IMG/VR virus record: IMGVR_UViG_3300025121_000011
Span: 261,474-325,473 of that record
From: a virus
Reading direction: 5' to 3' (one strand)
DNA: 64,000 nucleotides
Below the pieces are notes generated by a model, which worked only from the letters and a program-made list of their open reading frames with translations, did not search any database and had not been told where the DNA came from. Positions 37,814 to 63,762 of the stretch are shown here, piece by piece (positions within the stretch are counted from its first letter, which is position 1; the number at the start of each line of letters is the position of its first letter). Both the position numbers and the translations under genes were made by a program.

Positions 37814-37816
37814 GAG

Positions 37817-38522: not shown

Positions 38523-38547
38523 GCGCATTGGTTGTCATGGATTAATA

Positions 38548-40684: not shown

Positions 40685-40694
40685 TGAGGCTTGC

Positions 40695-41105: not shown

Positions 41106-42331
41106 TGGGTAAACGATATTTAACTGAAAAAGAAGAGGGGCGTATTCGTCGAGCTATTAAGCAGAAGATTCAGTTTTTTTCGCCTACTATCTCTCCAGCT
41201 CCAAAAGATATGACTCGTAGAGAGATTGAAAGCATTCGTTCTGCAATCATGATTTATCATGAAGCTGGTATGAAAGGTGTTGTTATTCAACCAAAGTATA
41301 TGGGTTCTTATTGTGATATTTATTTGCATCGAGATCTTGATAAGACTAAATTTTATTCTCGTCGTGGTTATGAAGTTAGACTTGATTTTGAAATCTTGAT
41401 TCAAGCAGTTAAATATTTGCATAATAAGTTTTTTTCCGATGAGTGTGAAATTAATTTTAAAGATGCAGAATTAATCATTATTCAATCCGAGCTTATGCCT
41501 TGGCATGCTTTAGGTGGAGGATTAATTGAGCGAGATTTTGGAGGGTATGAAATCTCTCACCGTATTCACCAAAGGTATTTTGCATCTACTGGCATTAAAA
41601 AAGATGTAGAGTCTTTAACAGAAGATCCGATTTATCGTCAATTTTTAGAAGATAAGTGTGTTATGGATCGTAAGACACTTCTTAAAAAGTATCCAATGCA
41701 TATTGCTTCTCAATATGAAGCTTTAGAAGCTCTTGCTTTTCCAGATGTAGAACAGTATCTTCAAGATATTGAAGTTTATTCCGAACAGCTTTCTCTATAT
41801 GGTTCGGCAGGAGAATTGCATTTTAAACCTTTTAATATTTTAAAGATTGTATATTGTGATGGGCGGGAGGTAATTCCTGGTGATCATAAATTTGGATTTT
41901 TATCAGTGAGATTAAATCAAGAAGAAAATCCAATGTTTGAAATCGATTTCTCAACACCAGAATTGGATAAACAAATCGATTTAGCTTATAAATTCTTTAA
42001 TACATTAACTGATGATAAAAAGATGGAGGGAGTAATTATCAAGCCGATTGGGATATGGAATCCTGATGTTGCACCAATGTTTAAGGTTCGAAATAATAAT
42101 TACTTACAAATGATTTATGGTGTCAATTTTCAGCGTGAGTATGATTATTATCTTAATAAACGAAGCATTGGTGGAAAAGTAAGGGCTTCTAAAAACCAAT
42201 GGAATATTGCACAAGAAATTATTAAAATTCCTATGACGGAAATTAGTGATGACAATGTTAATTACACCAAATTAATTCGTGGTAGAATTTATGAAGAAGA
42301 TTATGAGAGGTTGTTAGATTCTAGATTATAA
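41105..42331 (+). CDS. nucleotidyltransferase-superfamily polynucleotide ligase-like protein (second RNA/DNA ligase)
   Basis: QPKYMGS (KxxG motif-I-like), EGVIIKP (motif IV), MFKVRN (motif V). Confidence 0.5.
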   Translation: MGKRYLTEKEEGRIRRAIKQKIQFFSPTISPAPKDMTRREIESIRSAIMIYHEAGMKGVVIQPKYMGSYCDIYLHRDLDKTKFYSRRGYEVRLDFEILIQAVKYLHNKFFSDECEINFKDAELIIIQSELMPWHALGGGLIERDFGGYEISHRIHQRYFASTGIKKDVESLTEDPIYRQFLEDKCVMDRKTLLKKYPMHIASQYEALEALAFPDVEQYLQDIEVYSEQLSLYGSAGELHFKPFNILKIVYCDGREVIPGDHKFGFLSVRLNQEENPMFEIDFSTPELDKQIDLAYKFFNTLTDDKKMEGVIIKPIGIWNPDVAPMFKVRNNNYLQMIYGVNFQREYDYYLNKRSIGGKVRASKNQWNIAQEIIKIPMTEISDDNVNYTKLIRGRIYEEDYERLLDSRL

Positions 42332-42347
42332 ACAAAAGGTGGTGTAG

Positions 42348-42842
42348 ATGTCTTCTGGTCATGATTCTCAATTGCAAGATGTATTAAGACTTTATGGTTA
42401 TAAATGTTTTTGGTGCAGAACTGATATAGTCAGGGTTTCTTCTTATAGAAAGATGTCTTCGCATGAAAAATCTAAATATAGGGTTGCTACGATAGATCAT
42501 CTTCTTCCGCAATCTTTTGCTGGCACCAATAATTTAAAAAATTTACGACCATCTTGTACTGATTGTAATGGGGCGCGAGGTAATGGTTGGCATAAAGATG
42601 AGGCAGAAGTTTTCCCAAGTTGTCCATTATTGCAAAAGTTAGAGAAGGAAAAGAAAAATCTCAATATTAAACTTAGTTTTCCGGATTCTACAAAGTGGCA
42701 TGCTAAGTGGGGTTCTCGTTTGAGATATACAATTCTTCCTTATGTATCGAAACAGGAGGGAGAAGATACGGAGATTAAACTGGATTTAATTTCCGAAGAA
42801 ATGAATCTGGAGATTCTTAATGAAGGCTCTGAATTGGATTAA
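42348..42842 (+). CDS. HNH endonuclease
   Basis: CFWC ... IDHLLPQSFAGTNNLKNLRPSCTDCN HNH motif. Confidence 0.6.
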   Translation: MSSGHDSQLQDVLRLYGYKCFWCRTDIVRVSSYRKMSSHEKSKYRVATIDHLLPQSFAGTNNLKNLRPSCTDCNGARGNGWHKDEAEVFPSCPLLQKLEKEKKNLNIKLSFPDSTKWHAKWGSRLRYTILPYVSKQEGEDTEIKLDLISEEMNLEILNEGSELD

Positions 42843-43062
42843 AGTTATTAAAGCAGAAGAAAATGATGATGAAACTTTTTATCAACTTCGTAAGTTAATT
42901 CGTGTTTCAGATATTCGTGATATAGATGAGTTAACTTATGAAAATGATGATGGAGAATCTGAGTTTTCTGGATGTTTAATTAATTTTTATGATGGAGACT
43001 CCATTAGAGTCTTTGATTCTTATGAGGAGCTTTACGAAAGTTTAGAAGGAGTTTTAAAATGA
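42820..43062 (+). CDS. hypothetical small acidic protein
   Basis: ORF overlapping the previous stop. Confidence 0.4.
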   Translation: MKALNWIKVIKAEENDDETFYQLRKLIRVSDIRDIDELTYENDDGESEFSGCLINFYDGDSIRVFDSYEELYESLEGVLK

Positions 43063-43598
43063 CGCCAATTTTAGTATTGCTTATTATGATGTTTATTCAA
43101 ATAGGATTTGGAATAATTTGGTCTATACTGAAATATAAAAAGAATACGAAAAATAGCGGTTCTCTTGAATCTGAAGTAGAATTTTTGGAAAAGAAGATTA
43201 ATGAACTTAATAAATATAATTCAAAGTTAGAAAAAAAAGTTACGTCTCAGTTAGATTCCTTGAATAAATTCGTAGAAGCTTCAAAAACTCAGACGGTTAA
43301 GTATGTAAACCCAAAAATTGAAGAACTTGAAGATAAACCCCATTTGTTTACTTATAGAGGAAGTATTGTAAAGAATTTAAAGATAATGGAAGAAGATTTA
43401 AAATCTTTATCAAATGGCGGGCGATGCAAGGTTGAGTTAACGGTTAAGGTGATTGGAGGATGGAAAGCTCACCTTATGAAGACTTGGACTTGTCCAAAGA
43501 CTGAGCACAGATATGATATATTATCAGAGCATATAAAAATATCTCCTTATAGAGGCACAGCAGATCAGATTATAAGTGAGATAAAAGGAGTCTGTTAG
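43059..43598 (+). CDS. hypothetical protein with N-terminal TM and coiled-coil
   Basis: ATGA overlap; hydrophobic N-terminus. Confidence 0.45.
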   Translation: MTPILVLLIMMFIQIGFGIIWSILKYKKNTKNSGSLESEVEFLEKKINELNKYNSKLEKKVTSQLDSLNKFVEASKTQTVKYVNPKIEELEDKPHLFTYRGSIVKNLKIMEEDLKSLSNGGRCKVELTVKVIGGWKAHLMKTWTCPKTEHRYDILSEHIKISPYRGTADQIISEIKGVC

Positions 43599-44204
43599 AT
43601 CCGTTTTGGGGTCTCGCTAAAGATGGTGAATATATTTTTGATTATCCAATCATATTTGAAGTCGGCGTATATCTTGATACTTCTAATAGGATTGCTCCTG
43701 AAGTACATGAGGTTCAAATTGCAATTCCAGTTGTCACAGTAGAAATTGTAGAGAAGCCAATTTTCATAGAGGTGGAACCAGAATCTACTCTTGATATGCA
43801 GGAGGTCAAAGATCTAATTGCCTCGCAATTAGAAGTTGAGCTATCTCTGTTAGATGCTTCTAAGAAGAAAAATTTAGCATCACATTCAGGCATTAGGACT
43901 ATTGGAGGCTGAAGTTGGTGTCAATATTGATGATACTTGTTGATTTAGCAGAGTTACGGACTAATGTTGACTTGTCATGCAGTTCTTATCGTATAAGACT
44001 TGGGTGTTCTAATGGCAATAGATGGGCGAAGTTGAGGCAAATTATCTCAACTTCGCCCAAAGGCGGCAAAAACTTGGCAGTGCAATTACTACTAAGTTTA
44101 GTTATTGTCTTATTAAAAAAAATGCCGTCGTAATACATGGGCATAAAGAACAAGATAACCAAAACCCTTAGCTGGAAGTATATTGACTTTACTCGGAGGA
44201 AATC

Positions 44205-44549
44205 ATGGGTGACCGTATTAAATTTGATTGGGTGACAGGAAAAACCTGTAATGTTTCAGAACTTGAACGAGATATCGATGAGTATCTTAGGGATAATGCT
44301 GGAGCGTCAAATATTGTTAAGCTAAGGACCGCCACAGAAGGTGGAAAGAATTTTACTACACCTCGAAAGACTATTGTAGAGGCGAAAGTTAGAATTCCAA
44401 TTTTTCAAGGTGTTCGTCGATTTAAAAAGCTTGAAATTAAAACTGACGAACAGATTGCGGAAGAAAAGAAACTTGCTGAAAATGAAGCGAGGTTAGTTGA
44501 GCGTCGTCGTCAACGTGCGGAAAGAGTTCTCATGGAGAAGGCTGGATAA
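44205..44549 (+). CDS. hypothetical protein
   Basis: SD GGAGGAAA. Confidence 0.45.
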   Translation: MGDRIKFDWVTGKTCNVSELERDIDEYLRDNAGASNIVKLRTATEGGKNFTTPRKTIVEAKVRIPIFQGVRRFKKLEIKTDEQIAEEKKLAENEARLVERRRQRAERVLMEKAG

Positions 44550-44610
44550 TCATAAATAATAGACCACTTTAATTAAAGTAGTAAATTTATAAAATTTTTC
44601 GGAGGAAACC

Positions 44611-44955
44611 ATGATTGACACTAATGAAGTTATTATTAAAACTGAGATTGGAACCTTTGCTCTTGTTCGGGATATGGAGCGATTTGAGCGATATTGGATT
44701 ACTCGTGATGGACGGTGTCCCGGTGCGCTAAAAAACGATAATATCGGGATGGTTGTTCCAGCTATATTTAGTATGGAACTTTATGCCATGGCTTTGGAAG
44801 AGGGATATTCTGTAGATTCTTTGTCTACACCTAAGCGTCCGATCAAGGAACATACTTCTAATCCGCGTGAGGCAAAGGCCCCGTCTGGTAAGCTGAAGAT
44901 TAAGATTTCTATGAAGCCTCGTATTGTAACTCGTGGTGAAGCCATTATTAATTAG
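44611..44955 (+). CDS. hypothetical protein
   Basis: SD GGAGGAAACC. Confidence 0.45.
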   Translation: MIDTNEVIIKTEIGTFALVRDMERFERYWITRDGRCPGALKNDNIGMVVPAIFSMELYAMALEEGYSVDSLSTPKRPIKEHTSNPREAKAPSGKLKIKISMKPRIVTRGEAIIN

Positions 44956-44993
44956 TTTAATGCATAGTGCTCAACCTATGATAAGAGGTTAAT

Positions 44994-45554
44994 ATGATTG
45001 ATGTTGAGGCTTTGTATTTAGAGATAAATGCTGCGCATTTTAAAAATAGTCTACCCGCGGATCTTCCAATCGAATGGAATTATAGTTTGCGCACAACAGC
45101 GGGAAGGTGTCATTATAGAGGCATAGGTTATAGAGTTTCCCCAACCAAGATTGATCTAAATCCACGATTGTTAGATTCTGATGAAAAAATTAGAAACACT
45201 TTAACTCATGAGATGGTGCATGCCTGGTTGATGCTTGATACCGGAGAGTATCATGGTCATGATGTATTTTTTCAACGGAAGATGGATGAAATTGTAGGAT
45301 ACAAGTGTTCACACACGTATCATCAGTATGATGTTTCTGATTTGCAGGAGGTGCGAGGTATTGAATATCATTGTCCGAAGCACGGAGTTGTTGGCCATAG
45401 AGCCAGAATGCCTCGTGCATATGATCTTAATCGCTATGTCTGCGATTACTGTGGTAGCAGAATTGAGTTTGTGGATACGCGACCTCCGACTTCTGCTGCT
45501 GCATCTCGTAAACAAAAGTCGGGAAAATTATCTATTAAGATACGACTTAAATGA
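44994..45554 (+). CDS. SprT-like zinc metalloprotease domain protein with C-terminal zinc ribbon
   Basis: TLTHEMVHAW (HExxH) SprT signature; CPKHG ... CDYCG. Confidence 0.6.
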   Translation: MIDVEALYLEINAAHFKNSLPADLPIEWNYSLRTTAGRCHYRGIGYRVSPTKIDLNPRLLDSDEKIRNTLTHEMVHAWLMLDTGEYHGHDVFFQRKMDEIVGYKCSHTYHQYDVSDLQEVRGIEYHCPKHGVVGHRARMPRAYDLNRYVCDYCGSRIEFVDTRPPTSAAASRKQKSGKLSIKIRLK

Positions 45555-45566
45555 GTCTAAATTAAA

Positions 45567-46271
45567 ATGATTTGGTATATTGGAGATGTTCATTGTCGAG
45601 TTAAAGATATTAAAAAAATCGCCAATGATGCAGAATCGTCTTGTAATCCTCCTGCTGTGTTAATTCAAGTTGGAGATTTCGGATGTTTTTGGCCAAATTA
45701 TACAAAAGAAATGGATGCCTGGATCCATGCCCGCGCGTTAACGCGGGAATGGTCTATTCCAATTATTACATGCGGAGGAAATCACGATAATTGGAATTTA
45801 TTTCTAAAGCTAGAATCAGAAAGTGATGCAGATTTACTAGAGATTATTCCAGATTCTGGAATTTTTTATGCTCGTCGTGGGTCTGTAATAGATATTGGCG
45901 GCATATCTCACGGATTTTTAGGTGGAGCATTTTCAACAAATCAGTCTTCTCTTATAGAAAACATAGATTGGTGGCGTCGTGAGGAACCAAATCGAGAAGA
46001 GTTCGACAGATTTTATCAAAATCTTTTAACATATCATCCAGATACAATCATTACGCATGAAGCTCCACGCTGTGTTTCTTATGATAGAATAGGAAGAAAT
46101 TCAAATACCACAGTTAGGATGTTGGATAATTTGTTTTGGATGGCAATGAAAGATGGATATCAACCGAAACGACATTACTACGGACATCATCATATATTAG
46201 AAAAAAGAAAAATAGCTGGAACAAAATTTTTCTGTTGTGGATACCACGGGGAATATTGGATTCGAGATTAG
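45567..46271 (+). CDS. calcineurin-like metallophosphoesterase
   Basis: GDVHC, GDFG and GGNHDNW metallophosphoesterase motifs. Confidence 0.65.
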   Translation: MIWYIGDVHCRVKDIKKIANDAESSCNPPAVLIQVGDFGCFWPNYTKEMDAWIHARALTREWSIPIITCGGNHDNWNLFLKLESESDADLLEIIPDSGIFYARRGSVIDIGGISHGFLGGAFSTNQSSLIENIDWWRREEPNREEFDRFYQNLLTYHPDTIITHEAPRCVSYDRIGRNSNTTVRMLDNLFWMAMKDGYQPKRHYYGHHHILEKRKIAGTKFFCCGYHGEYWIRD

Positions 46272-46292
46272 ATTTAAAAAGGAGGCAACTAA

Positions 46293-46475
46293 TGGGCGTG
46301 TGGTATCTATGCTGTTTGGCTATCATAAATATTTATCTAATAAAAATATGTTATGATGTAATCCCAAAAGCAAGAAACTTTGGTGAAAAGTTTCGGGCCT
46401 GGGTTGGGCTCGTGGCAAATATTTTTGCTTTAATTGTTTCTGTTATATTTTTAGTGACATACCTAACTATCTAGG
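46293..46475 (+). CDS. small membrane protein
   Basis: SD AAGGAGG then ATG 46293; 60 aa with two hydrophobic helices (track ORF 46136 is an over-extension). Confidence 0.4.
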
Positions 46476-46485
46476 AGGGTTTAAA

Positions 46486-46725
46486 ATGTTGGGGTATTTA
46501 ATTTTCTGGATTGTTTCTAGAATTATTATATTTATTCTAATTTCAAAAAAATTCTATATTTCAAGAAATACAGAGTTGCCATCTGTTGTATGCTTTCTGT
46601 CTATACCTATTGTTGGTGAAATGGTTGTAATTCTAGAAGTTTTATTTTTTACATATGACATCCTTATTCCACGTATTATGATGCGGGTTGGTGGTGTTTG
46701 TAACAATCTCACAAGGAAAAAATAA
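46486..46725 (+). CDS. small membrane protein
   Basis: SD GGAGGG; hydrophobic. Confidence 0.4.
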   Translation: MLGYLIFWIVSRIIIFILISKKFYISRNTELPSVVCFLSIPIVGEMVVILEVLFFTYDILIPRIMMRVGGVCNNLTRKK

Positions 46726-46919
46726 TGGAATTTATTATTCTATATATTCTTAATAGTCCCGCTGGACTTGTTGTGGTTACCGCCATTATGTTATGGGGGT
46801 TGTATGTGGTGGCGGGTATGGGTATGCGTGCATATCGAGATAATGATTTGGCGACAGGCTTATCATCATTATTGGCGATTTTAATGTATCTTTGTTGTTT
46901 TGGCAGCTTTATTCTATAA
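46725..46919 (+). CDS. small membrane protein
   Basis: ATG overlapping the previous stop; 2 TM. Confidence 0.4.
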   Translation: MEFIILYILNSPAGLVVVTAIMLWGLYVVAGMGMRAYRDNDLATGLSSLLAILMYLCCFGSFIL

Positions 46920-46931
46920 TAGGATATTATA

Positions 46932-47201
46932 ATGTCTACACCGGCTATTATTTATTTAGTGCTTGTTATAATGCAACTCTTTTATATGTGGGTTAGGTAT
47001 TGTCTTGATGTAAATGTAGATGCTCCAGTCGATACGTTGTCGATCATTATGATTTGTTTGTTATTGCTTTGGGGAGGGTTTTTCGATCCTCCTCATAAAG
47101 AGGTTGATTGTTCTACAGATGATGTTGTTGTGGCAATTCCAAATGGTTATCATCTGGAAAAGATTCAAACTAACATAAAAGATTTAGACTCGGGAATTTA
47201 A
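46932..47201 (+). CDS. small membrane protein
   Basis: SD TAGGATA; hydrophobic N-terminus. Confidence 0.4.
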   Translation: MSTPAIIYLVLVIMQLFYMWVRYCLDVNVDAPVDTLSIIMICLLLLWGGFFDPPHKEVDCSTDDVVVAIPNGYHLEKIQTNIKDLDSGI

Positions 47202-47335
47202 AGGTATCTAGGTTTATAGTAACTTATAAAAATATATCTCACGGTAAACTTAAATAGAATAATATAGGATTATTATATCTCAGTGGAAGCTGAGAATTTT
47301 GTATTTTAATAAACTAAATATAGGAGATATTACAG

Positions 47336-47868
47336 TGGATAAATATGATGATATGGCCGGATTACCACTTTGGAGTATCCCAAAATCTTCGTCTGAGACT
47401 CGTTTGCAGTTTATTAAGGATTCTGAAAAAGATTTATCTGATATTAAATCGATAGATCTAAGAACTCAGGATGGAGTAAAGCTGTTTCATCAAACGATGA
47501 ATAAATTTGGTTTTCAATTTACTGAAGGCACAAAGGAAGATGAGAAAATTCTCAAGATTCAACAGGATAATGCTTGTATTATCATGGAGAGTTTAATTGA
47601 GGCAGCAAAGATTGGAAAAGAGGGACAAACAGTTTTAATAGCTACATATCAAAAGGATGTTTTATACGGATTATGTTTTGACTTAGAAAATAAAAGAGTA
47701 TATAAAACATCGGTTAAGATTGATATGACTAAGTATACCAATCAAGATGCTGTTTTGAAAGAAATCTCAGATCTTACAATTGGGTTAACACTTGAAGCAT
47801 GGGCAAAGCAACAGAATGCTGTTATTGCTTGGGATGCTGTAAGTATTTTATGCGGTTGTGCTTTTTAA
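47336..47868 (+). CDS. hypothetical protein (GTG 47336 with SD TAGGAGA; track start 47299 is TTG)
   Basis: SD-supported start; ends before the DNA ligase gene. Confidence 0.45.
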
Positions 47869-47881
47869 AAGGAAAAAATAA

Positions 47882-49057
47882 ATGACTACATCACTTGAAG
47901 ATCTTACCACTGCATTACCAACTTTATATGCTTTAGACAGCAGCGGACGTATCAAGGTCTGGTCCGTTAGCATATGCATACATTTGGATCAATCCGCTAC
48001 ATATACAGTAATTCACGGGCTTTTAGATGGAAAGAAACAGAGAAGCCCGCGCAAAATTACCAGCGGGAAAAATATTGGGAAAGCTAATGAAACTTCCCCA
48101 TATGCTCAAGCGTTATCAGAAGCTCAAAGCAAATGGAAAAAACAGATTGACAAGGGATATGTAGAAGATGTGAATAACATTCCTGTCTGCACAGAGGTAG
48201 AATATTTTCTTCCGATGCTTGCTCAAAAATATACTGAGCGTAGTAAGCACATGAAATATCCTGCGTATGTGCAGCCAAAGTTCGATGGTTATCGAGCACT
48301 TAGTCGAAGAATCGGTAAGCAAGTTGTTCTATGGTCTAGAACCGGGAAGCCATTTTTTACCCTGGATATTATCGTTTCTGAATTAGAATCGATAATAAGT
48401 TCAAATGAATGTTTAGATGGGGAAGTTTATAGGCATGACTGGAGAAGTCCATCTAATGAGCCCGACTTTCAAAGAGTTTCTTCGGCAATTAAAAAGAGAA
48501 AGGCAGATACAGATTTGTTAGAATATCATGTTTATGATCGTCCAATTCCAGAGAAGCCTGAAGCCTCATTCTATGAGCGGTTTTATAAACCAGCGTTCAT
48601 TGACGGCACTTTAGTTGGCAGTGACCATGTTAAAATTGTCCCCACTGCATTGGTGGCATCAGAAGAAGAAATGATGCTTCTTTTTAATCAATGGGTCAGT
48701 GAAGACCTTCCGTATGAAGGTGCTATCGTTAGAAATGCTTCTGGTGTATATGGATTTGACACCAGAAGCAATGATCTTCTGAAGGTAAAGGATTTTCAAG
48801 AAGAAGAGTATGAAATCATTGGAGCTAAAGAAGGTACCGGAAAAGACGAGGGTACTGCAATCTTCTTATGTAAGATGAAGGATGGTACAGAATTTGATAG
48901 TCGTCCGGTAGGCTCTTATGAGCAGAGAGCAGAATATTTAACTAACATTAGTAAATATATAGGCAGATATCTTCGGGTAAGATTTAATGGTCTGTCTAAT
49001 CTTGGGGTTCCACGCTTTAATCGTGGCGTAGGTATCAGAGAAGAATGGGATATGTAA
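47882..49057 (+). CDS. ATP-dependent DNA ligase
   Basis: motif I KFDGYRAL (KxDGxR), motif IV EGAIVR, motif V DLLKVK. Confidence 0.75.
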   Translation: MTTSLEDLTTALPTLYALDSSGRIKVWSVSICIHLDQSATYTVIHGLLDGKKQRSPRKITSGKNIGKANETSPYAQALSEAQSKWKKQIDKGYVEDVNNIPVCTEVEYFLPMLAQKYTERSKHMKYPAYVQPKFDGYRALSRRIGKQVVLWSRTGKPFFTLDIIVSELESIISSNECLDGEVYRHDWRSPSNEPDFQRVSSAIKKRKADTDLLEYHVYDRPIPEKPEASFYERFYKPAFIDGTLVGSDHVKIVPTALVASEEEMMLLFNQWVSEDLPYEGAIVRNASGVYGFDTRSNDLLKVKDFQEEEYEIIGAKEGTGKDEGTAIFLCKMKDGTEFDSRPVGSYEQRAEYLTNISKYIGRYLRVRFNGLSNLGVPRFNRGVGIREEWDM

Positions 49058-49374
49058 TGTATAGCATAGTAATTTTATTGTTTGGCTTTTGTGTTATGAT
49101 GCTTTTGATAAAACTTGGCATGTTGAGTAGTGTGCATGATCTTGATCGCACTAATAAGCTTCTTAAGATTGCTAAGAATCAATTAAAAGAATTATTTGAA
49201 GCAGAACAGATTTTAGGAAGAGCTCTCGGATATCCCACGTATGATCCTGTTTTATTTCCAGATGCAGATGGCGATGTTTGTACTGGTGAAAACACTGTAG
49301 TAACTTTGGCATTGGAAGCAGCGGACTTAATTGCAAATTTGGATACAACTGACAAAGTATTAGTGGAGATTTAA
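49045..49374 (+). CDS. hypothetical protein with N-terminal TM
   Basis: overlaps the ligase gene end. Confidence 0.4.
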   Translation: MGYVMYSIVILLFGFCVMMLLIKLGMLSSVHDLDRTNKLLKIAKNQLKELFEAEQILGRALGYPTYDPVLFPDADGDVCTGENTVVTLALEAADLIANLDTTDKVLVEI

Positions 49375-49874
49375 TGATTTTTTATATTGGTACATATAAT
49401 GATGGAGTTGTAAAACATGAGGGCTGTGAAAACTTAAAGGAGGCAGTAAGATTTTTCTCTAGAGATGTTATGGGTCATACTTTAAATAGTATTACAGATT
49501 ATAATTACAATTTGTTATGGTCTATAGATGGAGGATACAAACCCTATCAGAGTAGCTCCATTAGGGCTATTGATGAGGTAGAAGTATCTCATATTATAGA
49601 TTATCTAAAAAATTCAGAAGAGGAATTATTTACCTTCTTAGTTGAAGACTCTAAGTTAAAGACAAAAGGGTATCGAACTGGTGCAAGCTTTACTTTTGAA
49701 GATGGAGTGTTTGTGTTAAAAGATTCAGAAATGCAACCACGTAAAATGATTAAGATTTCAATAGACGTAGTTGATATTATGAAACATAGGTTCAATGCTG
49801 AATACTTATGTGAGAATTGTAATAGGAGCATGCTAGATATGGAAGATCCAACCGGATTTTGTAATTCAATTTAA
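49374..49874 (+). CDS. hypothetical protein
   Basis: ATGA coupling. Confidence 0.45.
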   Translation: MIFYIGTYNDGVVKHEGCENLKEAVRFFSRDVMGHTLNSITDYNYNLLWSIDGGYKPYQSSSIRAIDEVEVSHIIDYLKNSEEELFTFLVEDSKLKTKGYRTGASFTFEDGVFVLKDSEMQPRKMIKISIDVVDIMKHRFNAEYLCENCNRSMLDMEDPTGFCNSI

Positions 49875-49888
49875 AAGAGATATTTAAT

Positions 49889-50332
49889 ATGAACTCCTAT
49901 CAGCGAAGAAAAAATCGTCGTTTTTTTAGCAAACTAATTAAAGCCCATCAAAATGGGCGACGAGGTAATTGGGCTTACTCTAGGGGCGGTAAGAAATATG
50001 ATTGTGAAGTATTTTTTGGTGTAGATAGAATAAGTTTATTATCAAAAGATAGGCGAAGTGTAGTTGTAACTTGGACACCCTCTTTCCCCATGCAGATACG
50101 AAGTTTAAAGTTTTTAGAAGAATATTATGGAGAGGATTCTGAGCTGAGATTCTTTCCTGCCTTTAGATTAAAAAATACCGATTATGTTATTATTCCGGGA
50201 TTGCTAAAGGGTTCTATACAGTGGATCTCCCTCCCATTATTAAGAAATGCTTCTTTTGATGAAGTATTTAATGTTCTGACTAGTGCTCAGAAGAAGGAAA
50301 TCATTTGGGTTTTTGATATACTTAGAGGATAG
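49889..50332 (+). CDS. hypothetical basic protein
   Basis: ORF in the operon. Confidence 0.45.
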   Translation: MNSYQRRKNRRFFSKLIKAHQNGRRGNWAYSRGGKKYDCEVFFGVDRISLLSKDRRSVVVTWTPSFPMQIRSLKFLEEYYGEDSELRFFPAFRLKNTDYVIIPGLLKGSIQWISLPLLRNASFDEVFNVLTSAQKKEIIWVFDILRG

Positions 50333-50336
50333 TGTA

Positions 50337-51158
50337 ATGAAAAAAATTGCAATAATTGGAGATATTCATGGTCGTTTAGATATGTTGATGAAAATGCATC
50401 TGAAAATCAGAGATGCATATGGAGATTTACAATTATATTCAACAGGTGATTTAATTGATCGAGGACCTGATGCCAGTGGTGTGATACAATATTGTATTGA
50501 TAATAATGTAAAGGCTGTTAGAGGCAATCATGATGATTGGCTTAGACAATTATGTGTAAATTATACATTTGACTCTCTTTCTATGCACGAGGTAATGGGA
50601 GGTAGATATACCGCCGTCTCTTATGGAGTTCAATCGGCAATTGTAGGGGAAAATAATAGGGAGATTGCCGAAGACCTTTTTAAAAAGGTTCCTACTTCAC
50701 ATAAGAATTGGTTATCTGCACTACCTATTTATTGTAAAATAGTAATGGATTCTGGAGAAGTTTATTGGATAACGCATGCGGGTTTAACAATCCCTATGGC
50801 AAACGATTTAACAGATGGTTTGTCAAAAGTTTCTGACGATATGCTTATGGCTAGCATTAATACTCCTGATCTTATTGAAACCTTTATATGGACTCGGCCA
50901 AATTTTCCAAAAATATTTGATGAGTCTACACCAGTTAAAAAAAGTACGCATGGCAACAATCTATACCATTTTAAAAATGGAGCTATTCAGGTATTTGGTC
51001 ATAGCGTAACTGGATATCCAGTTATAGATAAACATTATATCGCAATTGATACTGGATGTGGAACACTTAAACGGGAGAAGTTAACCGCAGTTGTTTTACC
51101 AGATAATGTATTTATTACAGTGGACGATTTTGAATTGAGTGGAGATCAGAGCAAATGA
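50337..51158 (+). CDS. PPP-family (lambda-phosphatase-like) Ser/Thr or polynucleotide phosphatase
   Basis: GDIHG, GDLIDRG and GNHD motifs at PPP spacing. Confidence 0.65.
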   Translation: MKKIAIIGDIHGRLDMLMKMHLKIRDAYGDLQLYSTGDLIDRGPDASGVIQYCIDNNVKAVRGNHDDWLRQLCVNYTFDSLSMHEVMGGRYTAVSYGVQSAIVGENNREIAEDLFKKVPTSHKNWLSALPIYCKIVMDSGEVYWITHAGLTIPMANDLTDGLSKVSDDMLMASINTPDLIETFIWTRPNFPKIFDESTPVKKSTHGNNLYHFKNGAIQVFGHSVTGYPVIDKHYIAIDTGCGTLKREKLTAVVLPDNVFITVDDFELSGDQSK

Positions 51159-56560: not shown

Positions 56561-56568
56561 TATTTTTT

Positions 56569-56681
56569 GCGGAATAGTGTAGTAGGGAGCACGCGTATAA
56601 TGTATCTTGATAAAGATGTATACAGCAATCAAACAAATCCATTGGGTGGACGAAGTATAGGTTCGAGTCCTATTTCTGCAA
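56569..56681 (+). ncRNA. tRNA-like element with expanded central region (acceptor TGCGGAA/TTCTGCA)
   Basis: D-arm GTGTAGTAGGGAGCAC, T-arm ATAGG-TTCGAGT-CCTAT, acceptor 7/7 with one G-U; 113 nt. Confidence 0.4.
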
Positions 56682-57230: not shown

Positions 57231-57319
57231 ATTTGAATAGCTTAGTGTCAAAGCGTTTGCGGCCTACTTCTTCGGATTCAAAAGCCGTAAAAGTCATAGG
57301 TTAGATTCCTATTTCAAAT
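57231..57319 (+). ncRNA. tRNA-like element with extended anticodon-region helix (acceptor ATTTGAA/TTCAAAT)
   Basis: 7/7 acceptor pairing, D-arm GCTTAGTGTCAAAGC, T-arm ATAGG-TTAGATT-CCTAT, 7-bp central helix with 19-nt loop. Confidence 0.35.
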
Positions 57320-57566
57320 ACTATTTAAACTATAGGTTCACGGAACACACTCTTTCACGGTGGTTACTCACTTTAAATTGAAATATTTTTAGGTCTATAG
57401 TTTAAATTTTTAAGGGATGCAATCAGCAATTAAATTTTTCTTTATGTAAAAACAAATCGCACCCTGATTTTTTTAGGATACAAACAGCAAATAAACATTC
57501 AACTTGTTTTTGAAAAACGTTTAATTGTATCCTGTTTATTATTAGTAGTAGCATTAAGGTGATAAT

Positions 57567-57857
57567 ATGATTCAAGCTATGACTGTATTGACAGCAGAAC
57601 CGCATCCTAATGCGGATAGATTAAAAGTCTATACTCTACGTGCAAGTTATGATGAGCCAATTCTTCAGGTGTGTGCTAATCTAACCAATGTTTATAGTGT
57701 TGGTAATGTTGTAGCTGTTTGTTTAATTGGTCATGCATATGATGGTATGGTTATCAAATCCCGGAAGGTGCGTGGGGTTCTGTCTCAAGGAATGATGATT
57801 GGTACTACAAAGGCTGTTTCAGGTTCTGATGTTACTGATTCATTTGTGATTGTGTAA
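57567..57857 (+). CDS. tRNA-binding domain protein (Myf/CsaA/Trbp111-like OB fold)
   Basis: VLTAEPHPNADRLKVYTL ... VCANLTNV ... GNVVAVCLIG matches the tRNA-binding domain pattern (V.PHPNADKL.VC.VD ... VCGA.N ... G..V.VA). Confidence 0.55.
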   Translation: MIQAMTVLTAEPHPNADRLKVYTLRASYDEPILQVCANLTNVYSVGNVVAVCLIGHAYDGMVIKSRKVRGVLSQGMMIGTTKAVSGSDVTDSFVIV

Positions 57858-58039: not shown

Positions 58040-58648
58040 ATGTTAAGGATGGTTGGGCCCAAAATTCCTATGGATATTTATGTGGCGGCTTCTGGTGGAC
58101 CAGACAGCATGGCTGTCTTGGATTTTCTTATTCGTGGTGGTCGTAAAATTACAGTTTTACATTTTGATCATGGGACTAAACATGGAGAAGATGCTAGAGA
58201 GTTTATTAGGGAGTATTGTCAGTCGAGAGATATTAAACTGATTATTGGAAATGAGATTAGAGAGCGAGACTCTAACGAGTCTATGGAAGAATATTGGCGT
58301 GATATGCGATATCAGTTTCTTGATCAGTATTCAGATAAGCCAATTGTCATGGCACATAATCTTGATGATCAGGTGATGAGTTGGGTATTTACTTCTTTGA
58401 ATGGATTGCCAAAACTTATTCCTTATAACAGAAGGAACGTTATCCGTCCTTTCATTGTAACTTCTAAGCAGAATATGATTGATTGGTGTGAGCGAAATGG
58501 GGTTCCGTATTTAACGGACCCAAGTAATGATGATACAAGATATATGAGAAATTTTATTAGAAAAGAAATTCTTCCTTCAGCTTTAGTTGTTAATCCAGGA
58601 TTATATAAAGTAATCTTAAAGAAGATTTTAAGAAATTTTGAAGGATAA
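58040..58648 (+). CDS. tilS: TilS-like PP-loop ATPase (tRNA(Ile)-lysidine synthetase catalytic domain)
   Basis: PP-loop SGGPDS followed by VLHFDHGTKHGEDAREFIREYC, matching the TilS pattern SGGxDS ... HxxHGxR ... ED..FV..C; 202 aa, so N-terminal domain only. Confidence 0.6.
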   Translation: MLRMVGPKIPMDIYVAASGGPDSMAVLDFLIRGGRKITVLHFDHGTKHGEDAREFIREYCQSRDIKLIIGNEIRERDSNESMEEYWRDMRYQFLDQYSDKPIVMAHNLDDQVMSWVFTSLNGLPKLIPYNRRNVIRPFIVTSKQNMIDWCERNGVPYLTDPSNDDTRYMRNFIRKEILPSALVVNPGLYKVILKKILRNFEG

Positions 58649-60352: not shown

Positions 60353-60988
60353 ATGCGAATTTGCACCTCAAATCCCGGCAAGGTATCTGAGTTTGGAGGG
60401 CTTCTCGCACCTCTAGATATTAACCTAGATGTGTCTGGAGATTACGATATTCCAGAAACCGGTATAACTTTTGCAGATAACTCGCGAGAAAAAATTCTGG
60501 GTTATGCCAAGCATTATTCTGGAGAATGGTTATTGGCAGATGATTCTGGATTAGTAATTCCAGCTTTAAATAATTTGCCAGGCCCATTTAGCGCGCGATT
60601 TAGTGATCTTGATCTTGATACGTTAATGATTGTATCAAGTGGAGATGATCGAGAAGTAATTGATTTAAAAAATAACAATCGTGTATTAGAGTTACTTAGT
60701 AATATTCCTCACGATAATCGTGGAGCTTACTTTGTGGCTTGTATTACTGTTTTAAATCCAGATGGAAAAGTTTCTTTCCAAGTAGAACGCAGAGCGTATG
60801 GTTATATTTCCAAAGAACTTCGTGGGAAAAATGGATTTGGATATGATCCTCTTTTCATTTCAGATAATAGCTTTGGCAAAACATGGGCAGAAATTGATAA
60901 GGCTAGAAAGTCTTTAATCAGTCATCGATCTAAAGCTATTTGGGATTTCTTGGCTTGGATCTGCTCTACATCTGAGGTTATTTCATGA
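60353..60988 (+). CDS. Ham1/RdgB-family non-canonical purine NTP pyrophosphatase (ITPase)
   Basis: N-terminal ICTSNPGKVSEF matches the Ham1 ATGNxGKxxE motif. Confidence 0.65.
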   Translation: MRICTSNPGKVSEFGGLLAPLDINLDVSGDYDIPETGITFADNSREKILGYAKHYSGEWLLADDSGLVIPALNNLPGPFSARFSDLDLDTLMIVSSGDDREVIDLKNNNRVLELLSNIPHDNRGAYFVACITVLNPDGKVSFQVERRAYGYISKELRGKNGFGYDPLFISDNSFGKTWAEIDKARKSLISHRSKAIWDFLAWICSTSEVIS

Positions 60989-61028
60989 GTATTCAGTTTA
61001 CAATTAATGTCGTAGTAACTCGGTTTTA

Positions 61029-61613
61029 ATGATGGAATCAATACTTTTGCATTTTGATTCGGTTATAAATTCAATTAAGATTGGAATGCCAACAGGTAGG
61101 CTCCGTGTGCCAGATATAATTTCTGTGCTTGGCGTCGAACCACCTAAGAGAATTGGGCGTGAATTGTTTCTTGCAAGTGGGCGATTTGTTTATTTTTATT
61201 CTAGAACAAAAGTTTATCCACAAATGGTTGCCATGAATGATCTTGATGTGGCCTTTGTTGGGTCGGACGCCTTAGAGGCTGGTCCTTATGCTCAACAGTG
61301 TAATGTTGTTTGGTCAGAGCTACAGCAAGGCGTAAGAGTAGTCCTGGCTGGCTCTACACAAATCTCTAAGGGTAAGCTGCTCCGAGTAGTTACCCCATTT
61401 CCAGAATGGGCTCAGAAGGTCATTGGCGAGCTAGGAATTCCTCATACGATTTACGCAGTAACGGGCGGATCAGAGGGTTTGGTTGCTCATGGTTTGGCTG
61501 ATGCCGTATTTGATATTGTTGAGACTGGAGAAACATTAAGAGATAATGGATTGGAAATTTTAATGGATTTCGGACAACTTCATACATGCTGTATTGTTAA
61601 GAGTAAGCCATGA
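61029..61613 (+). CDS. hisG: ATP phosphoribosyltransferase HisG-like (short form)
   Basis: GRL and DVAFVGSDALEAG resemble HisG hinge/PRPP regions (D.P.LV..G.VDLGI.G.D.L.E). Confidence 0.55.
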   Translation: MMESILLHFDSVINSIKIGMPTGRLRVPDIISVLGVEPPKRIGRELFLASGRFVYFYSRTKVYPQMVAMNDLDVAFVGSDALEAGPYAQQCNVVWSELQQGVRVVLAGSTQISKGKLLRVVTPFPEWAQKVIGELGIPHTIYAVTGGSEGLVAHGLADAVFDIVETGETLRDNGLEILMDFGQLHTCCIVKSKP

Positions 61614-62494
61614 TTGAACTAGATTCTATGACGATGGATACATTTCGCCAACAACCATTAGTAGTAGAAGGTGAAAGCAAAGAAATTAGAGAGCATCCAG
61701 AAGATCCAGAAAAAGTATTAATTTGGTTAAAGCCCACAATCTATAGCTTCACAGAAAATCGTTGTGCTTGGGTCGAAGGATCAAATCTTTTGAGAGCAAG
61801 AGCTATGAAAATCATTGTTCCTTTATTGCAAAGTAAAGGAATAGATCATGCTTATCAAGATATTTCCGATGTAACTGGTTTGATTTCGGCCAGAAAAATC
61901 CATCCGTCAGAAGACCCAAATGTAGAGGTAATCGTAAAGAGATTTAATAGTGGCACATCTTATCATCGTTATTATGGAATGGCGGCTAAGCCAACGAGGG
62001 GATCTCATAAGTTATGGCCCGGGGAAGTTGTTGGAAAGTATGAGCCATATCGTGGACCAAAGATTAGGTTTGACTGGAGGAATCCATTCTGGATTCCAGA
62101 ATTAGTAATGAAGCTTCGTAAGACTAATCCGTTACTTCCAGCGGAAGTTTATAAGTGGCCTGATGAATTGCGTCAAGGCATTATGATGCGTGATGAAGTC
62201 TTGGGAGAGGATTTTGCTTCCGAGCTAATTGATACAAAGCAAGCTAGGAAAACTGCTCTATGGACATATGCAGTTTTACAAAATTATATGGGTGAAAGAA
62301 ATATCGTTATATATGATATGTGTTTGTTTATTACATCAGATGGTAAAACTGTATATGGTGAAATCAATCAAGACTCTGGACGATTTAGACATTTAGATTA
62401 TGGAATGTTGGATAAGGATGTCTGGAGAGCAGGAGGCTCCATTGGAGATGTTTTAGAAAAATGGCAGATGCTAACTGTTATGTTACAAGAATAA
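61610..62494 (+). CDS. SAICAR synthetase (PurC)-like protein
   Basis: LVVEGESKEI ... KPTIYSFTENRCAWVEGSNLLRARAM ... GIDHAY ... VEVIVKRFNSGT tracks E. coli PurC LYRGKAKTVY ... [21 protein letters not shown] ... GIPTQM ... VECVVRNRAAGS. Confidence 0.55.
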   Translation: MIELDSMTMDTFRQQPLVVEGESKEIREHPEDPEKVLIWLKPTIYSFTENRCAWVEGSNLLRARAMKIIVPLLQSKGIDHAYQDISDVTGLISARKIHPSEDPNVEVIVKRFNSGTSYHRYYGMAAKPTRGSHKLWPGEVVGKYEPYRGPKIRFDWRNPFWIPELVMKLRKTNPLLPAEVYKWPDELRQGIMMRDEVLGEDFASELIDTKQARKTALWTYAVLQNYMGERNIVIYDMCLFITSDGKTVYGEINQDSGRFRHLDYGMLDKDVWRAGGSIGDVLEKWQMLTVMLQE

Positions 62495-62514
62495 TGACAG
62501 AAGGTTTGTGAAAT

Positions 62515-63762
62515 ATGATTATACCAAGTATTGATATTCAGGGCGGCAAAGTAGTTCAGCTTATTGAGGGCAGGGAGTTAGCATTAACTGTAGATGTTCC
62601 ATACGCTTTAGCTGAAAAGTTTTCTCGCGTTGGAGAGTTTGCTGTTATAGATTTAGACGCTGCTATGGGTTTGGGTAATAATCGAGAGATTGTAGAATCT
62701 TTAGTAAGAAAATATCCAGTTAGAGTTGGTGGTGGTATTAGGAATATATCAGATGCATTATATTGGTTAAATGCCGGGGCGTCAAAGATTATTATTGGAA
62801 CCGCCGCTGTTCCAAATTTTATTTCACAACTTCCTCGTGATCGAATTATTGTAGCTTTAGATTCTTATAATGACGATGTTGTTATAAATGGTTGGACTAC
62901 AAGAACTGGACGTAATGTTGCCCAAGCTATGCAAGATGTTTTACCATATACATCTGGATTCTTAATTACTTTTGTAGAGAAAGAAGGAAGGTTAGATGGC
63001 ACAAACTTAGACAGGACTAAGTTTTTAGTTGATGCCGCAAATGGTGCGCGCATCACTTTTGCAGGAGGAATTACAACTGCTAATGATATAGCATATCTAG
63101 ATTCTATTGGTGCCGATTCGCAGGTCGGAATGGCTCTTTACACTGGAAAGCTTTTATTATCGGAAGGGTTCGCTTCTGTTTTGAAAAGTGATCGAAGCGA
63201 TGGACTTTGGCCAACAGTTGTTCAAGATGAATCTGGAGTATTAGGTTTAGTATATTCAAATCAAGAAAGTCTTCATACATCAATTGAATCTGGTGAAGGT
63301 GTATATTGGTCAAGAAGAACCGGTTTATGGAAGAAGGGAAACTTTTCTGGCAATACACAATCAATAGTAAATATTAAAGTAGATTGTGATCGAGATGCTT
63401 TGCTTTTTACAGTAAAGCAGCATGGTGAGGGATTCTGTCATACCGGTTCTTATCAATGTTTTAATTCAATGGATGCACTATTTGAACTTGAACAAACATT
63501 AGAGCGCAAGAAACATTCTAATGATTTAGAATCTTATACATATAACTTATTTGAGCAATCAAATATCTTAAGAAATAAGATCATGGAAGAGGCGGCTGAA
63601 TTATGTGACGCCCATAGTAATAGTGAGGTTATTCATGAGGCGGCAGATCTGATATATTTTATGATGACTTATCTTTCTTTACATGATGTAACTTTAGCTG
63701 ATATTAAGAAAGAAATTAAACGTCGGTCATTAGTGATTGCAAGAAGGAAAAGTAAAGAGTGA
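62515..63762 (+). CDS. hisAIE: HisA-HisI-HisE fusion protein (ProFAR isomerase, PR-AMP cyclohydrolase, PR-ATP pyrophosphatase)
   Basis: N-terminal MIIPSIDIQGGKVVQL (HisA MIIPALDLIDGTVVRL); middle DCDRDALLFTVKQHGEGFCHTGSYQCF (HisI); C-terminal SYTYNLF ... EEAAEL ... EAADLIYF (HisE). Confidence 0.7.
   Translation: MIIPSIDIQGGKVVQLIEGRELALTVDVPYALAEKFSRVGEFAVIDLDAAMGLGNNREIVESLVRKYPVRVGGGIRNISDALYWLNAGASKIIIGTAAVPNFISQLPRDRIIVALDSYNDDVVINGWTTRTGRNVAQAMQDVLPYTSGFLITFVEKEGRLDGTNLDRTKFLVDAANGARITFAGGITTANDIAYLDSIGADSQVGMALYTGKLLLSEGFASVLKSDRSDGLWPTVVQDESGVLGLVYSNQESLHTSIESGEGVYWSRRTGLWKKGNFSGNTQSIVNIKVDCDRDALLFTVKQHGEGFCHTGSYQCFNSMDALFELEQTLERKKHSNDLESYTYNLFEQSNILRNKIMEEAAELCDAHSNSEVIHEAADLIYFMMTYLSLHDVTLADIKKEIKRRSLVIARRKSKE

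Follow-up and report, generated by a model that had tools for sequence, protein, structure and literature searches.

A four-gene cassette in the window

The 64,000-nucleotide stretch of DNA analysed here (the window) spans positions 261,474 to 325,473 of the IMG/VR virus record IMGVR_UViG_3300025121_000011. Four closely spaced, co-oriented genes on the + strand occupy window positions 60353–63762. They encode a Ham1-type pyrophosphatase, a short HisG, a protein with the predicted fold of succinylaminoimidazolecarboxamide ribotide (SAICAR) synthetase, here called PurCl, and a fusion of HisA, HisI and HisE:

60353–60988, + strand: Ham1/RdgB-type non-canonical purine nucleoside triphosphate (NTP) pyrophosphatase, 211 amino acids (aa); Pfam Ham1p_like, E 9.8e-44
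61029–61613, + strand: short, divergent HisG-like ATP phosphoribosyltransferase, 194 aa; Pfam HisG, E 6.5e-20
61610–62494, + strand: PurCl, SAICAR-synthetase-fold protein of a distinct family, 294 aa; borderline Pfam SAICAR_synt match and AlphaFold (AF2) model
62515–63153, + strand: HisA domain (phosphoribosylformimino-AICAR ribotide (ProFAR) isomerase), residues 1–213 of the 415-aa fusion; PF00977 (His_biosynth), E 9.4e-40
63247–63465, + strand: HisI domain (phosphoribosyl-AMP (PR-AMP) cyclohydrolase), residues 245–317; PF01502 (PRA-CH), E 3.9e-27
63484–63726, + strand: HisE domain (phosphoribosyl-ATP (PR-ATP) pyrophosphohydrolase), residues 324–404; PF01503 (PRA-PH), E 1.9e-15

The intergenic distances across the cassette are 40 bp, a 4-bp overlap between HisG and PurCl, and 20 bp, a spacing that fits a single operon. 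A promoter and terminator scan around the cassette gave counts no different from chance. A first-pass annotation of the same DNA had described three consecutive co-oriented genes at 61029–63762 with Ham1 immediately upstream. This arrangement is correct, and the Ham1 gene (60353–60988, E 1e-43 when rounded) is moreover a member of the cassette, being fused to PurCl in several lineages.

The Ham1 protein retains the motifs ADDSGL, FGYDP and SHR in alignment to solved inosine triphosphate pyrophosphatases (ITPases). Its ADDSGL pairs with the ADDSGL of a solved dITP/XTP pyrophosphatase, and the aspartate that we take to be the catalytic residue of Ham1 proteins is kept. KomB-type defensive Ham1-like proteins have a histidine at this position (bioRxiv 2024.12.20.629578). 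Judged by its model match and the kept aspartate, the phage Ham1 appears to be of the active housekeeping ITPase type and not of the KomB sensor type.

HisG is short and divergent, scoring 69 bits against TIGR00070, under the cutoff of 75.75. Its nearest relatives in the PDB are the short HisG proteins of the HisG–HisZ complexes 1z7m and 1usy, and the conserved HisG block EGLVAHGLADAVFDIVETGETL is intact in the translation. The 194-aa chain has no Pfam match to HisG_C, the C-terminal histidine-sensing domain, and the Pfam scan found no HisZ or tRNA-synt_His-type family among the other open reading frames (ORFs).

The HisA–HisI–HisE fusion forms one 415-aa chain (62515–63762). The place of the barrel in his operons led us to consider HisF as its identity, but the model scores indicate HisA (151.7 bits for TIGR00007, hisA, against 41.5 bits for TIGR00735, hisF). 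The HisI block DCDRDALLFTV...CHTGSYQCF is readable in the translation, and the HisE domain scores 63.5 bits against TIGR03188, over the cutoff of 42.7. With strong model scores for HisE, HisI and HisA, the activities needed to reach phosphoribulosylformimino-AICAR ribotide (PRFAR) are all predicted to be available from the cassette. The profile models therefore uphold the proposal that the domains cover the steps from phosphoribosyl pyrophosphate (PRPP) plus ATP to PRFAR, with HisG, HisA, HisI and HisE each matched; the same check left the PurC assignment at a borderline SAICAR_synt match with none in NCBIfam.

The phage fusion is 52–56% identical to its closest relatives, which sit in ordinary, complete his operons of the order hisG(long)-C-B-H-F-(A-I-E)-D in Planctomycetota, Phycisphaerae, Rhodospirillaceae and others. 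This level of identity argues that the phage fusion is a working, PRFAR-making enzyme. The order is that of the normal his operon in several phyla (L086–L090), with hisC and hisD missing in L086. The triple fusion, confirmed here as one chain, is not special in itself; the parts specific to the cassette are the short, divergent HisG, PurCl, Ham1 and a small kinase found in other carriers. The his operons share the triple fusion with the phage, but they encode a long HisG with HisG_C together with HisB, C, D, F and H, and contain neither PurCl nor Ham1, while the phage lacks the later enzymes. Taken together, the identity of the HisA–HisI–HisE fusion, the intact HisG block and the intact Ham1 catalytic motif make the enzymes look catalytically competent.

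Our analysis covers 74 kb of a 333-kb genome, namely the 64-kb window and the 10 kb downstream of it. No hisB, hisC, hisD, hisF or hisH gene was found in the 60 kb upstream or the 10 kb downstream of the cassette. This extends the earlier observation that HisB, C and D are not visible, and the 10 kb past position 64000 do not complete an ordinary his operon. It also speaks against a release of aminoimidazole carboxamide ribotide (AICAR, or ZMP) through HisFH, which had been suggested on the assumption that hisF and hisH might follow; neither gene is present in the window or the 10 kb downstream. Among 68 further ORFs scanned with Pfam, none matched a reductase, HisZ or a later his enzyme. We rejected an ordinary his operon or a host-derived island as the origin of the locus, given the lack of later his genes in these 74 kb, the short HisG and the recurrence of the cassette elsewhere. 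The same three observations agree with the earlier view that the genes do not serve histidine synthesis.

The PurCl family

PurCl is related to canonical PurC only at the border of detection by sequence. It matches the Pfam SAICAR_synt model with E 1.8e-4 and 21.8 bits (cutoff 20), a match that covers the C-terminal third only, and it matches no NCBIfam model. Its AlphaFold model has a predicted local distance difference test (pLDDT) score of 83 and a predicted TM score (pTM) of 0.80. Foldseek aligned the model to the solved SAICAR synthetases 2yzl, 2ywv and 4fe2 (E 3e-12, TM ~0.8 on the target, 13–21% identity), and no other fold matched comparably. The predicted structure thus points to a SAICAR-synthetase fold.

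PurCl has relatives at 45–71% identity, many of which are located on contigs of 0.2–0.66 Mb, including those of Lak megaphages. An alignment of 17 family members (A1) contains 70 invariant columns. The family is small and tightly conserved: among 1.84 billion representative proteins, a profile search recovered only 399 clusters at E ≤ 1e-3, of which 168 reach E ≤ 1e-30.

Profile-to-PDB alignments place the family motif D-x-C-[LFY]-F (D-(L/M)-C-L-F in these alignments) where PurC has DFK(L/I)EFG, and the family motif G-E-I-x-x-D where PurC has ADEISPD (GDEFSPD in Escherichia coli). In the numbering of the 237-aa E. coli PurC, these swaps fall on K177, E179 and D191, and all three residues are absent across the family. 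No PurCl clade has an acidic counterpart of E179 or D191, the two residues that we take to hold the Mg ions at the ATP site. The other side of the active site is kept. PurCl K110, T116, R258, K269, D270 and R273 are the counterparts of E. coli R94, S100, R199, K211, D212 and R215, which reportedly contact carboxyaminoimidazole ribotide (CAIR) or the ribotide, in an account of the E. coli residue roles attributed to Ginder et al. (2006). PurCl also retains the motifs for ribotide binding around LDKDxxR and RxxH/W.

Since both Mg-ATP ligands are missing family-wide, PurCl is unlikely to be a SAICAR synthetase, and the first-pass annotation's suggestion of this role is not supported. Its residues suggest that PurCl, with the fold of PurC, can still bind an aminoimidazole-carboxamide ribotide but is unable to perform the ATP-dependent ligation.

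The cassette in viruses and cells

Scanning GTDB, one genome per species, with the PurCl family motifs yielded 59 loci. Carriers in the candidate phyla radiation (CPR) include Saccharibacteria, Uhrbacteria, Falkowbacteria, Parcubacteria and Peribacteria. The other GTDB carriers belong to Woesearchaeota, Myxococcota, Bdellovibrionota, Oligoflexia, Planctomycetia and Acidobacteriota, with one Herpetosiphon. The corresponding IMG/VR scan found PurCl in Lak-like megaphages, metagenome-assembled genomes (MAGs) of giant viruses and other large contigs. Two bacterial MAGs have HisA-I-E, Ham1 and HisG as neighbours of PurCl.

We counted linkage over 78 non-duplicate PurCl loci, scoring a partner as linked if it lies within 5 kb on the same strand or is fused:

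HisG: linked in 38/78 loci, fused in 7 of these
HisA/I/E: linked in 19/78 loci, fused in 1 of these
Ham1: linked in 37/78 loci (34 adjoining), fused in 3 of these
Mini thymidylate kinase (TMK)-like kinase: linked in 37/78 loci, fused in 11 of these

The cassette recurs without a his operon nearby in CPR, DPANN, Myxococcota and Bdellovibrionota. Fusions join its parts in many orders. Ham1 and PurCl are fused in L022, L023, L024, P0124, P0125 and P0128, and the domain orders include PurCl-Ham1-kinase, PurCl-Ham1-HisG (P0124) and HisG-PurCl-Ham1 (P0125). P0152 and P0200 are HisA-HisI-HisE-HisG-PurCl fusions. On a 481-kb viral contig, kinase-PurCl-HisA-HisI-HisE-HisG form one chain of 1228 aa (L080 7227–10913), and P0204 and P0230 are similar to it, with incomplete Pfam matches. 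HisG-kinase-PurCl proteins occur in giant-virus MAGs (L073 6555–8963, L075), and the kinase is also fused to HisG in L082. Single polypeptides of ~800–1337 aa therefore hold most or all of the pathway domains (L080, L073, P0152, P0200, P0204, P0230).

Linkage and fusions in so many orders are strong comparative evidence for one pathway with PurCl as its hub. Ham1 adjoins PurCl or is fused to it, which places it in the pathway in the main clade. We are highly confident that these genes make up a conserved pathway other than histidine synthesis.

The mini-kinase is a family of ~125–150 aa with a thymidylate-kinase-like P-loop and the motifs DGNDGTGKST, DRGIPT and EKYHT..DL..YR, and it resembles deoxynucleotide kinases. 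Its gene directly follows Ham1 in the cassettes of CPR, DPANN and Myxococcota and in Lak phages (for example L011 9532–9879, L017 9511–9921, L040 9454–9843 and L003 6324–6785).

Several carriers have HisG and PurCl and no HisA-I-E. Lak phages encode HisG, kinase, Ham1, a CoaD-like nucleotidyltransferase and PurCl, with no detectable HisA-I-E. The Lak-B2 cluster (MK250021.1 141110–145335; L003 4564–8789) comprises an RNA ligase, a 150-aa protein of unknown function, a HisG-like protein, the mini-kinase, Ham1, the CoaD-like nucleotidyltransferase and PurCl. The nucleotidyltransferase, of the cytidylyltransferase family, might join the product to AMP. A group of 276–511-kb phages (P0012 phage) has PurCl-Ham1-HisG, and a Leptospiraceae MAG (JACKPC010000005.1; L085 5425–8683) has Ham1-HisG-PurCl, both without HisA-I-E. 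The Leptospiraceae PurCl is 67% identical to that of the phage. This locus adjoins TonB/ExbBD genes on a bacterial chromosome and is a possible clue to the host lineage of the phage or to the source of its genes. Next to its PurCl (L085 7961–8683) lies a 240-aa cysteine-rich protein with Fe-S-like motifs, which belongs to no Pfam family and of which no counterpart was seen elsewhere. HisE, HisI and HisA can be borrowed where the host has a his operon, and are encoded in the cassette in CPR or in a self-sufficient phage.

Some settings differ. In CPR, PurA is encoded within or next to the cassette in L019 (6667–7938), L027 (6660–7961), L064 (8263–9678) and L017 (4679–6019). This may be simple clustering of purine genes, or PurA could act next in line on an IMP-like product or be a resistant copy of a target. 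A Saccharibacteria variant (L025, L029, L030, L031, L036, L039) has the order TMK-like kinase, PurCl, in some cases a second kinase, and a short Ham1. It sits among pentose-phosphate and glycolysis genes and fits none of the explanations considered below. A distant branch at 31–34% identity with the motif D-I-C-F-F is found in Bradyrhizobium (L043–L048, L051, L059), Devosia and a Nostocales strain (L050). The Bradyrhizobium and Nostocales members have no his genes, Ham1 or kinase nearby. Bradyrhizobium PurCl neighbours, assigned by eye from sequence, are a ~413-aa P450-like protein, an aminotransferase-like protein and a multi-pass membrane protein that is a possible transporter, so that the setting looks like a natural-product cluster.

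Phage context

The carrier is a 333-kb jumbo phage. All cassette proteins are present on a contig of 333,139 bp (ERZ27254749 k141_307008). An identical HisA-I-E protein occurs on 22 contigs, of which this is the longest and none exceeds 1 Mb; the longest contig with the PurCl protein has 336,356 bp. The size of these contigs is the first of five supports for a phage context. The others are the matches of RNA and DNA ligases in the window to PHROG families, the tRNAs, the presence of ArdC with RNA repair genes, and the homologues of the cassette genes in Lak megaphages. There are no structural phage genes inside the 64-kb window. PHROGs has no family for HisG, PurCl or HisA-I-E, and PADLOC gave no match for any of the four cassette proteins.

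The window contains ArdC, an RNA ligase, a protein with a Hen1 N-terminal domain, a PNKP-type ligase, a DNA ligase, two metallophosphoesterases, a TilS-N-like PP-loop protein, a tRNA-binding protein and eight tRNA matches. The 10 kb past its end hold small unknown genes, an AAA ATPase, a CoaE-type kinase, a gp30.3-like protein and a nucleoside deoxyribosyltransferase-like protein. The mini TMK-like kinase was not found in the 74 kb. We considered the CoaE-type kinase, 6.6 kb downstream, as the cassette kinase, but it is a standard dephospho-CoA kinase and probably unrelated.

Much of the repair inventory lies at 35722–51158, where a radical SAM protein, the RNA ligase, the Hen1 N-terminal protein, the PNKP-type ligase, the DNA ligase and the two metallophosphoesterases form an RNA/DNA repair cluster. 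It resembles the Pnkp/Hen1 tRNA-repair set, of the type used against anticodon nucleases. Two tRNAs with CAT anticodons (54038, 55196) are located near a protein with only the TilS N-terminal domain (58040–58648) and a small tRNA-binding protein (57567–57857), and the phage may supply its own tRNA-Ile2 plus lysidine synthetase. Rfam reports eight tRNA-like matches, with long ones at 56568–56681 and 57231–57320, and ARAGORN reports four; the Rfam scan of the window found tRNAs only. Among ORFs of otherwise unknown function in the window and downstream, the Pfam scan also counted three Imm5-like immunity-type proteins, an SprT-like protease, a GNAT acetyltransferase, a cREC_REC protein, an HNH endonuclease, a bactofilin-like protein and a protein with a cytidine/dCMP deaminase domain.

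The first 28 kb of the window (1–28000) have a GC content of 0.43–0.48, against 0.33–0.39 elsewhere, and few long ORFs. Recoding TAG, TGA or TAA each gave no clear gain, and we rejected an alternative genetic code. The region instead seems to consist of numerous short genes, each preceded by copies of a repeated element in part of its length. Between positions 120 and 23732 we found ~15–20 copies of a composite intergenic element in one orientation, 0.5–2.6 kb apart (for example 3140–3271, 6651–6763, 7696–7808 and 10838–10960). The element opens with a ~35-bp palindrome, TTGGCAY-N6-TGCWTWAWGCA-N6-RTGCCAA, the halves of which resemble a sigma-54 -24/-12 box. The pattern TGGYAYNNNNNNTGCW has 31 matches against 0.95 expected. 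After it come GGCGGCAAAAG...CTCTAAAAAKATAT...GTAACTAAGGR and a small ORF. The composite element is probably a phage-specific terminator, promoter or leader unit for the block of small genes.

A proposed pathway and its alternatives

Coformycin and pentostatin both inhibit adenosine deaminase, and their biosynthesis in bacteria suggests what the cassette may do. In work attributed to Ren et al. (PNAS, 2020), CofB is said to turn PRFAR into 8-ketocoformycin-5'-phosphate by cyclising onto the carboxamide, without a phosphorylated intermediate. The reaction reportedly releases ammonia and erythronate-4-phosphate, with ATP serving as an activator only. For pentostatin, the HisG homolog PenA takes dATP or ATP together with PRPP, HisI, HisE and HisA act next, the SAICAR-synthetase homolog PenC builds the diazepine ring and the dehydrogenase PenB finishes the product (PMC11611020, PMC12648386).

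By analogy, the short HisG of the phage, which has no feedback domain, would condense PRPP with ATP or dATP, and the HisE, HisI and HisA domains would convert the product to PRFAR or its 2'-deoxy form. PurCl would then consume PRFAR without making SAICAR. Its chemistry would most likely be that of CofB and PenC, in which the ring closes onto the carboxamide and ammonia is lost, and would lead to an 8-oxo-1,3-diazepine ("ring-expanded inosine") nucleotide. Ham1, and elsewhere the mini TMK-like kinase, would be accessories of the pathway. Ham1 might clear (d)ITP, hold the product at the monophosphate level by removing triphosphates, or act as a pyrophosphatase for a non-standard phosphoribosyl-NTP (PR-NTP). 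The coformycin-type chemistry is proposed because a ribotide-binding PurC fold without the ligase metal site fits what CofB does. The resemblance of the kinase to deoxynucleotide kinases and the reported use of dATP by PenA give a hint, and only a hint, of a deoxy route from dAMP.

We infer that PRFAR is the likely substrate of PurCl. The explanation we favour, tentatively and largely by analogy, is that the cassette is a self-contained branch off the histidine route with coformycin-type chemistry, for which a diazepine nucleotide would be the product.

Deaminases that act on adenine nucleotides offer a possible target in the phage. RADAR RdrB (PMC9994260) and Cad1 of type III CRISPR (PMC11645235) make ITP or dITP from adenine nucleotides in defence. 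In the Kongming system, KomA deaminates dAMP and dITP triggers NAD+ loss, with an inactive Ham1-like protein as the dITP sensor (bioRxiv 2024.12.20.629578). A diazepine nucleotide could act as a transition-state-type inhibitor of adenine-nucleotide deaminases while Ham1 destroys (d)ITP. The combined effect would be to blunt RdrB, Cad1 and KomA immunity by hitting both the enzyme and its product. The counter-defence and repair genes in the neighbourhood (ArdC, Pnkp/Hen1-type RNA repair, ligases, tRNAs) fit such an anti-defence role. As a hypothesis for the phage, an anti-deaminase function nevertheless strikes us as doubtful. We are similarly reserved about its widest form, in which a pathway of up to seven domains, common to jumbo and Lak phages, giant viruses, CPR/DPANN and predators, would make a coformycin- or pentostatin-phosphate-like analogue that shuts down the deaminases of the victim.

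A number of observations weigh against coformycin-type chemistry and an inhibitor as its outcome. No short-chain dehydrogenase/reductase for the CofA/PenB step was found among the conserved neighbours, in the examined fusions or in the 74 kb of the phage, so the end product would be the 8-oxo compound, a far weaker inhibitor of adenosine deaminase than the alcohol. The GTDB scan with PurCl motifs and the search with the Bradyrhizobium branch returned no actinomycete, and orthology of PurCl to CofB, PenC or AdeA is unproven. In CPR the cassette is found among housekeeping genes (CCA-adding enzyme, FtsW, MurG, an aminoacyl-tRNA synthetase), and at least four annotated CPR loci have adenylosuccinate synthetase within or next to the cassette; both favour primary purine metabolism over an inhibitor. 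The Saccharibacteria subgroup with kinase-PurCl-Ham1 has no HisG or HisA-I-E within 8 kb, no mini-kinase was found in the 74 kb of the phage covered here, and a nucleoside monophosphate (NMP)-type kinase and an NTP pyrophosphatase in one pathway have no settled logic. The distant Bradyrhizobium branch occurs in its quite different, natural-product-like setting. Finally, the link to defence is hypothetical.

These points lend some weight to purine salvage or interconversion, in which adenine nucleotides would be ring-opened to AICAR (ZMP) or IMP, balancing the A and G pools of nucleotide scavengers. The purine-precursor route suggested in the first-pass annotation comes close to this reading. 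In it, PurCl would represent a new enzyme that cleaves PRFAR or recloses the ring, with Ham1 and the kinase cleaning up the pools of inosine and Z-nucleotides. The range of carriers (CPR, DPANN, predatory bacteria, phages and giant viruses) agrees with this, as do the housekeeping neighbours in CPR and the adenylosuccinate synthetase genes of L019, L027, L064 and L017. Ham1 and TMK-like kinases are nucleotide-pool enzymes, and PurCl retains its aminoimidazole-ribotide-binding residues. However, the cassette has no linked hisF/hisH, purH or purB. Even the all-in-one fusions retain HisA, which simple deamination would not need, and PRPP plus two pyrophosphate bonds would be spent on what a deaminase does free. 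We also know of no PurC-fold enzyme that cleaves PRFAR or recloses its ring, and consider this explanation unlikely. A different nucleotide-derived metabolite, such as a modified DNA or RNA base, a cofactor-like dinucleotide, or a signalling or toxic nucleotide, would have its PurCl product activated by the kinase while Ham1 protects the producer. Fusion of the kinase to PurCl in 11 loci, the CoaD-like nucleotidyltransferase and RNA ligase of the Lak cluster, the TilS-like and tRNA-binding genes just upstream in the window, and the P450-like, aminotransferase-like and transporter neighbours in Bradyrhizobium (assigned by eye from sequence) can be read in this way, and without a reductase the product need not be coformycin-like. 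Yet a kinase joined to Ham1 in a single chain would run the same nucleotide in a cycle. Polymerases, transferases and glycosylases are not among the conserved partners of the cassette, which is also present amid housekeeping genes in cellular genomes. Such a metabolite, too, seems improbable to us.

Histidine itself is close to refuted as the purpose, whether through auxiliary metabolic genes that boost its synthesis or a host his fragment acquired by chance, and we regard it as very improbable. The 52–56% identity of HisA-I-E to the fusion of complete his operons, and the position of HisG at the committed, feedback-controlled histidine step, would suit it. They are outweighed by the absence of hisB/C/D/F/H from the 60 kb upstream and 10 kb downstream, by a short, divergent HisG unlike the long HisG of those operons, and by the recurrence of the Ham1-HisG-PurCl set, also in fused form, with no his operons nearby.

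If the coformycin-type branch is real, then viruses and obligate parasites encode the whole synthesis of a nucleotide analogue that inhibits enzymes, a type of route known only from antibiotic-producing actinomycetes and a fungus. Small-molecule synthesis would join the means of phage counter-defence, which so far are mainly proteins, sponges and degrading enzymes, and deaminase-based immunity would gain a natural antagonist. Fusions such as those of 999–1337 aa would make the whole pathway available as one compact chain for the production of pentostatin-like compounds. Should the product be another one, the comparative result stands, namely a PurC-fold family free of the ligase site and tied to HisG, HisA-I-E, Ham1 and the mini-kinase. 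Its linkage in viruses and in three types of parasitic or predatory cell would then mark an uncharacterised branch of nucleotide metabolism, with PRFAR as a testable substrate.

Comparison with known systems

The first-pass annotation considered the arrangement to be undescribed. For phages this agrees with the literature. A full-text search found nothing linking these genes, or coformycin and pentostatin, to phages, giant viruses, Saccharibacteria or Bdellovibrio, nor do these genes come up in a comparative review of jumbo phages or in the Lak paper. The cassette is thus undescribed in phages within the literature searched. The precedent in the pentostatin, coformycin and adechlorin clusters had been missed (PMC11611020, PMC12648386, PMC13055916), and the logic of a branch formed by HisG and a PurC homolog is already known. 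Adechlorin clusters recruit the PurC-like AdeA, the HisG-like AdeC and the HisA-like AdeK (PMC13055916). What is new here are the carriers, the accessory enzymes Ham1 and mini-kinase, and the absence of the known last step.

The phage cassette and the pentostatin, coformycin and adechlorin clusters both have dedicated HisG and SAICAR-synthetase homologs that act with HisE, HisI and HisA, branching at PRFAR. Genes for HisG and a PurC-superfamily protein are encoded together, adjacent with the 4-bp overlap in the phage and linked or fused in 38/78 loci. Carriers with HisG and PurCl and no HisA-I-E (Lak, P0012 phage, Leptospiraceae MAG) resemble the pentostatin cluster and could borrow HisI, HisE and HisA from the host. 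Unlike the actinomycete clusters, the phage cassette has no short-chain dehydrogenase; Ham1 and, elsewhere, the mini TMK-like kinase are linked instead. The PurCl cassettes also lack the companion 'protégé' nucleoside pathway. Their carriers are viruses, CPR, DPANN and predatory bacteria, with a housekeeping context in CPR, whereas the known routes belong to actinomycetes or fungi. The likeness of PurCl to PenC and CofB is one of analogy, with orthology unproven, and no CofB entry was among the matches in the PDB comparisons by profile and Foldseek.

Canonical PurC shares the fold and the ribotide motifs with PurCl. The PurCl gene, however, never occurs with pur genes other than purA and is linked to his genes instead.

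Fungi offer a further parallel. Cordyceps Cns3 is reported (Xia et al. 2017) to consist of a nucleoside/nucleotide kinase domain fused to a HisG domain, in a system where pentostatin is said to protect cordycepin. This kinase-HisG fusion resembles the HisG-kinase-PurCl proteins of giant viruses and L082, but Cns3 is fungal and its kinase is assigned to the cordycepin branch. To our knowledge, no PurC-fold partner is fused to Cns3.

The closest functional comparison in phages is Dmp of phage T5, which depletes dAMP against Kongming (bioRxiv 2024.12.20.629578). Dmp and the proposed role of the cassette lie on the same axis of adenine-nucleotide deamination and dITP signalling. While Dmp-type proteins are single enzymes that act on pools or signals, the phage cassette would be a putative multi-enzyme pathway that synthesises a small-molecule inhibitor.

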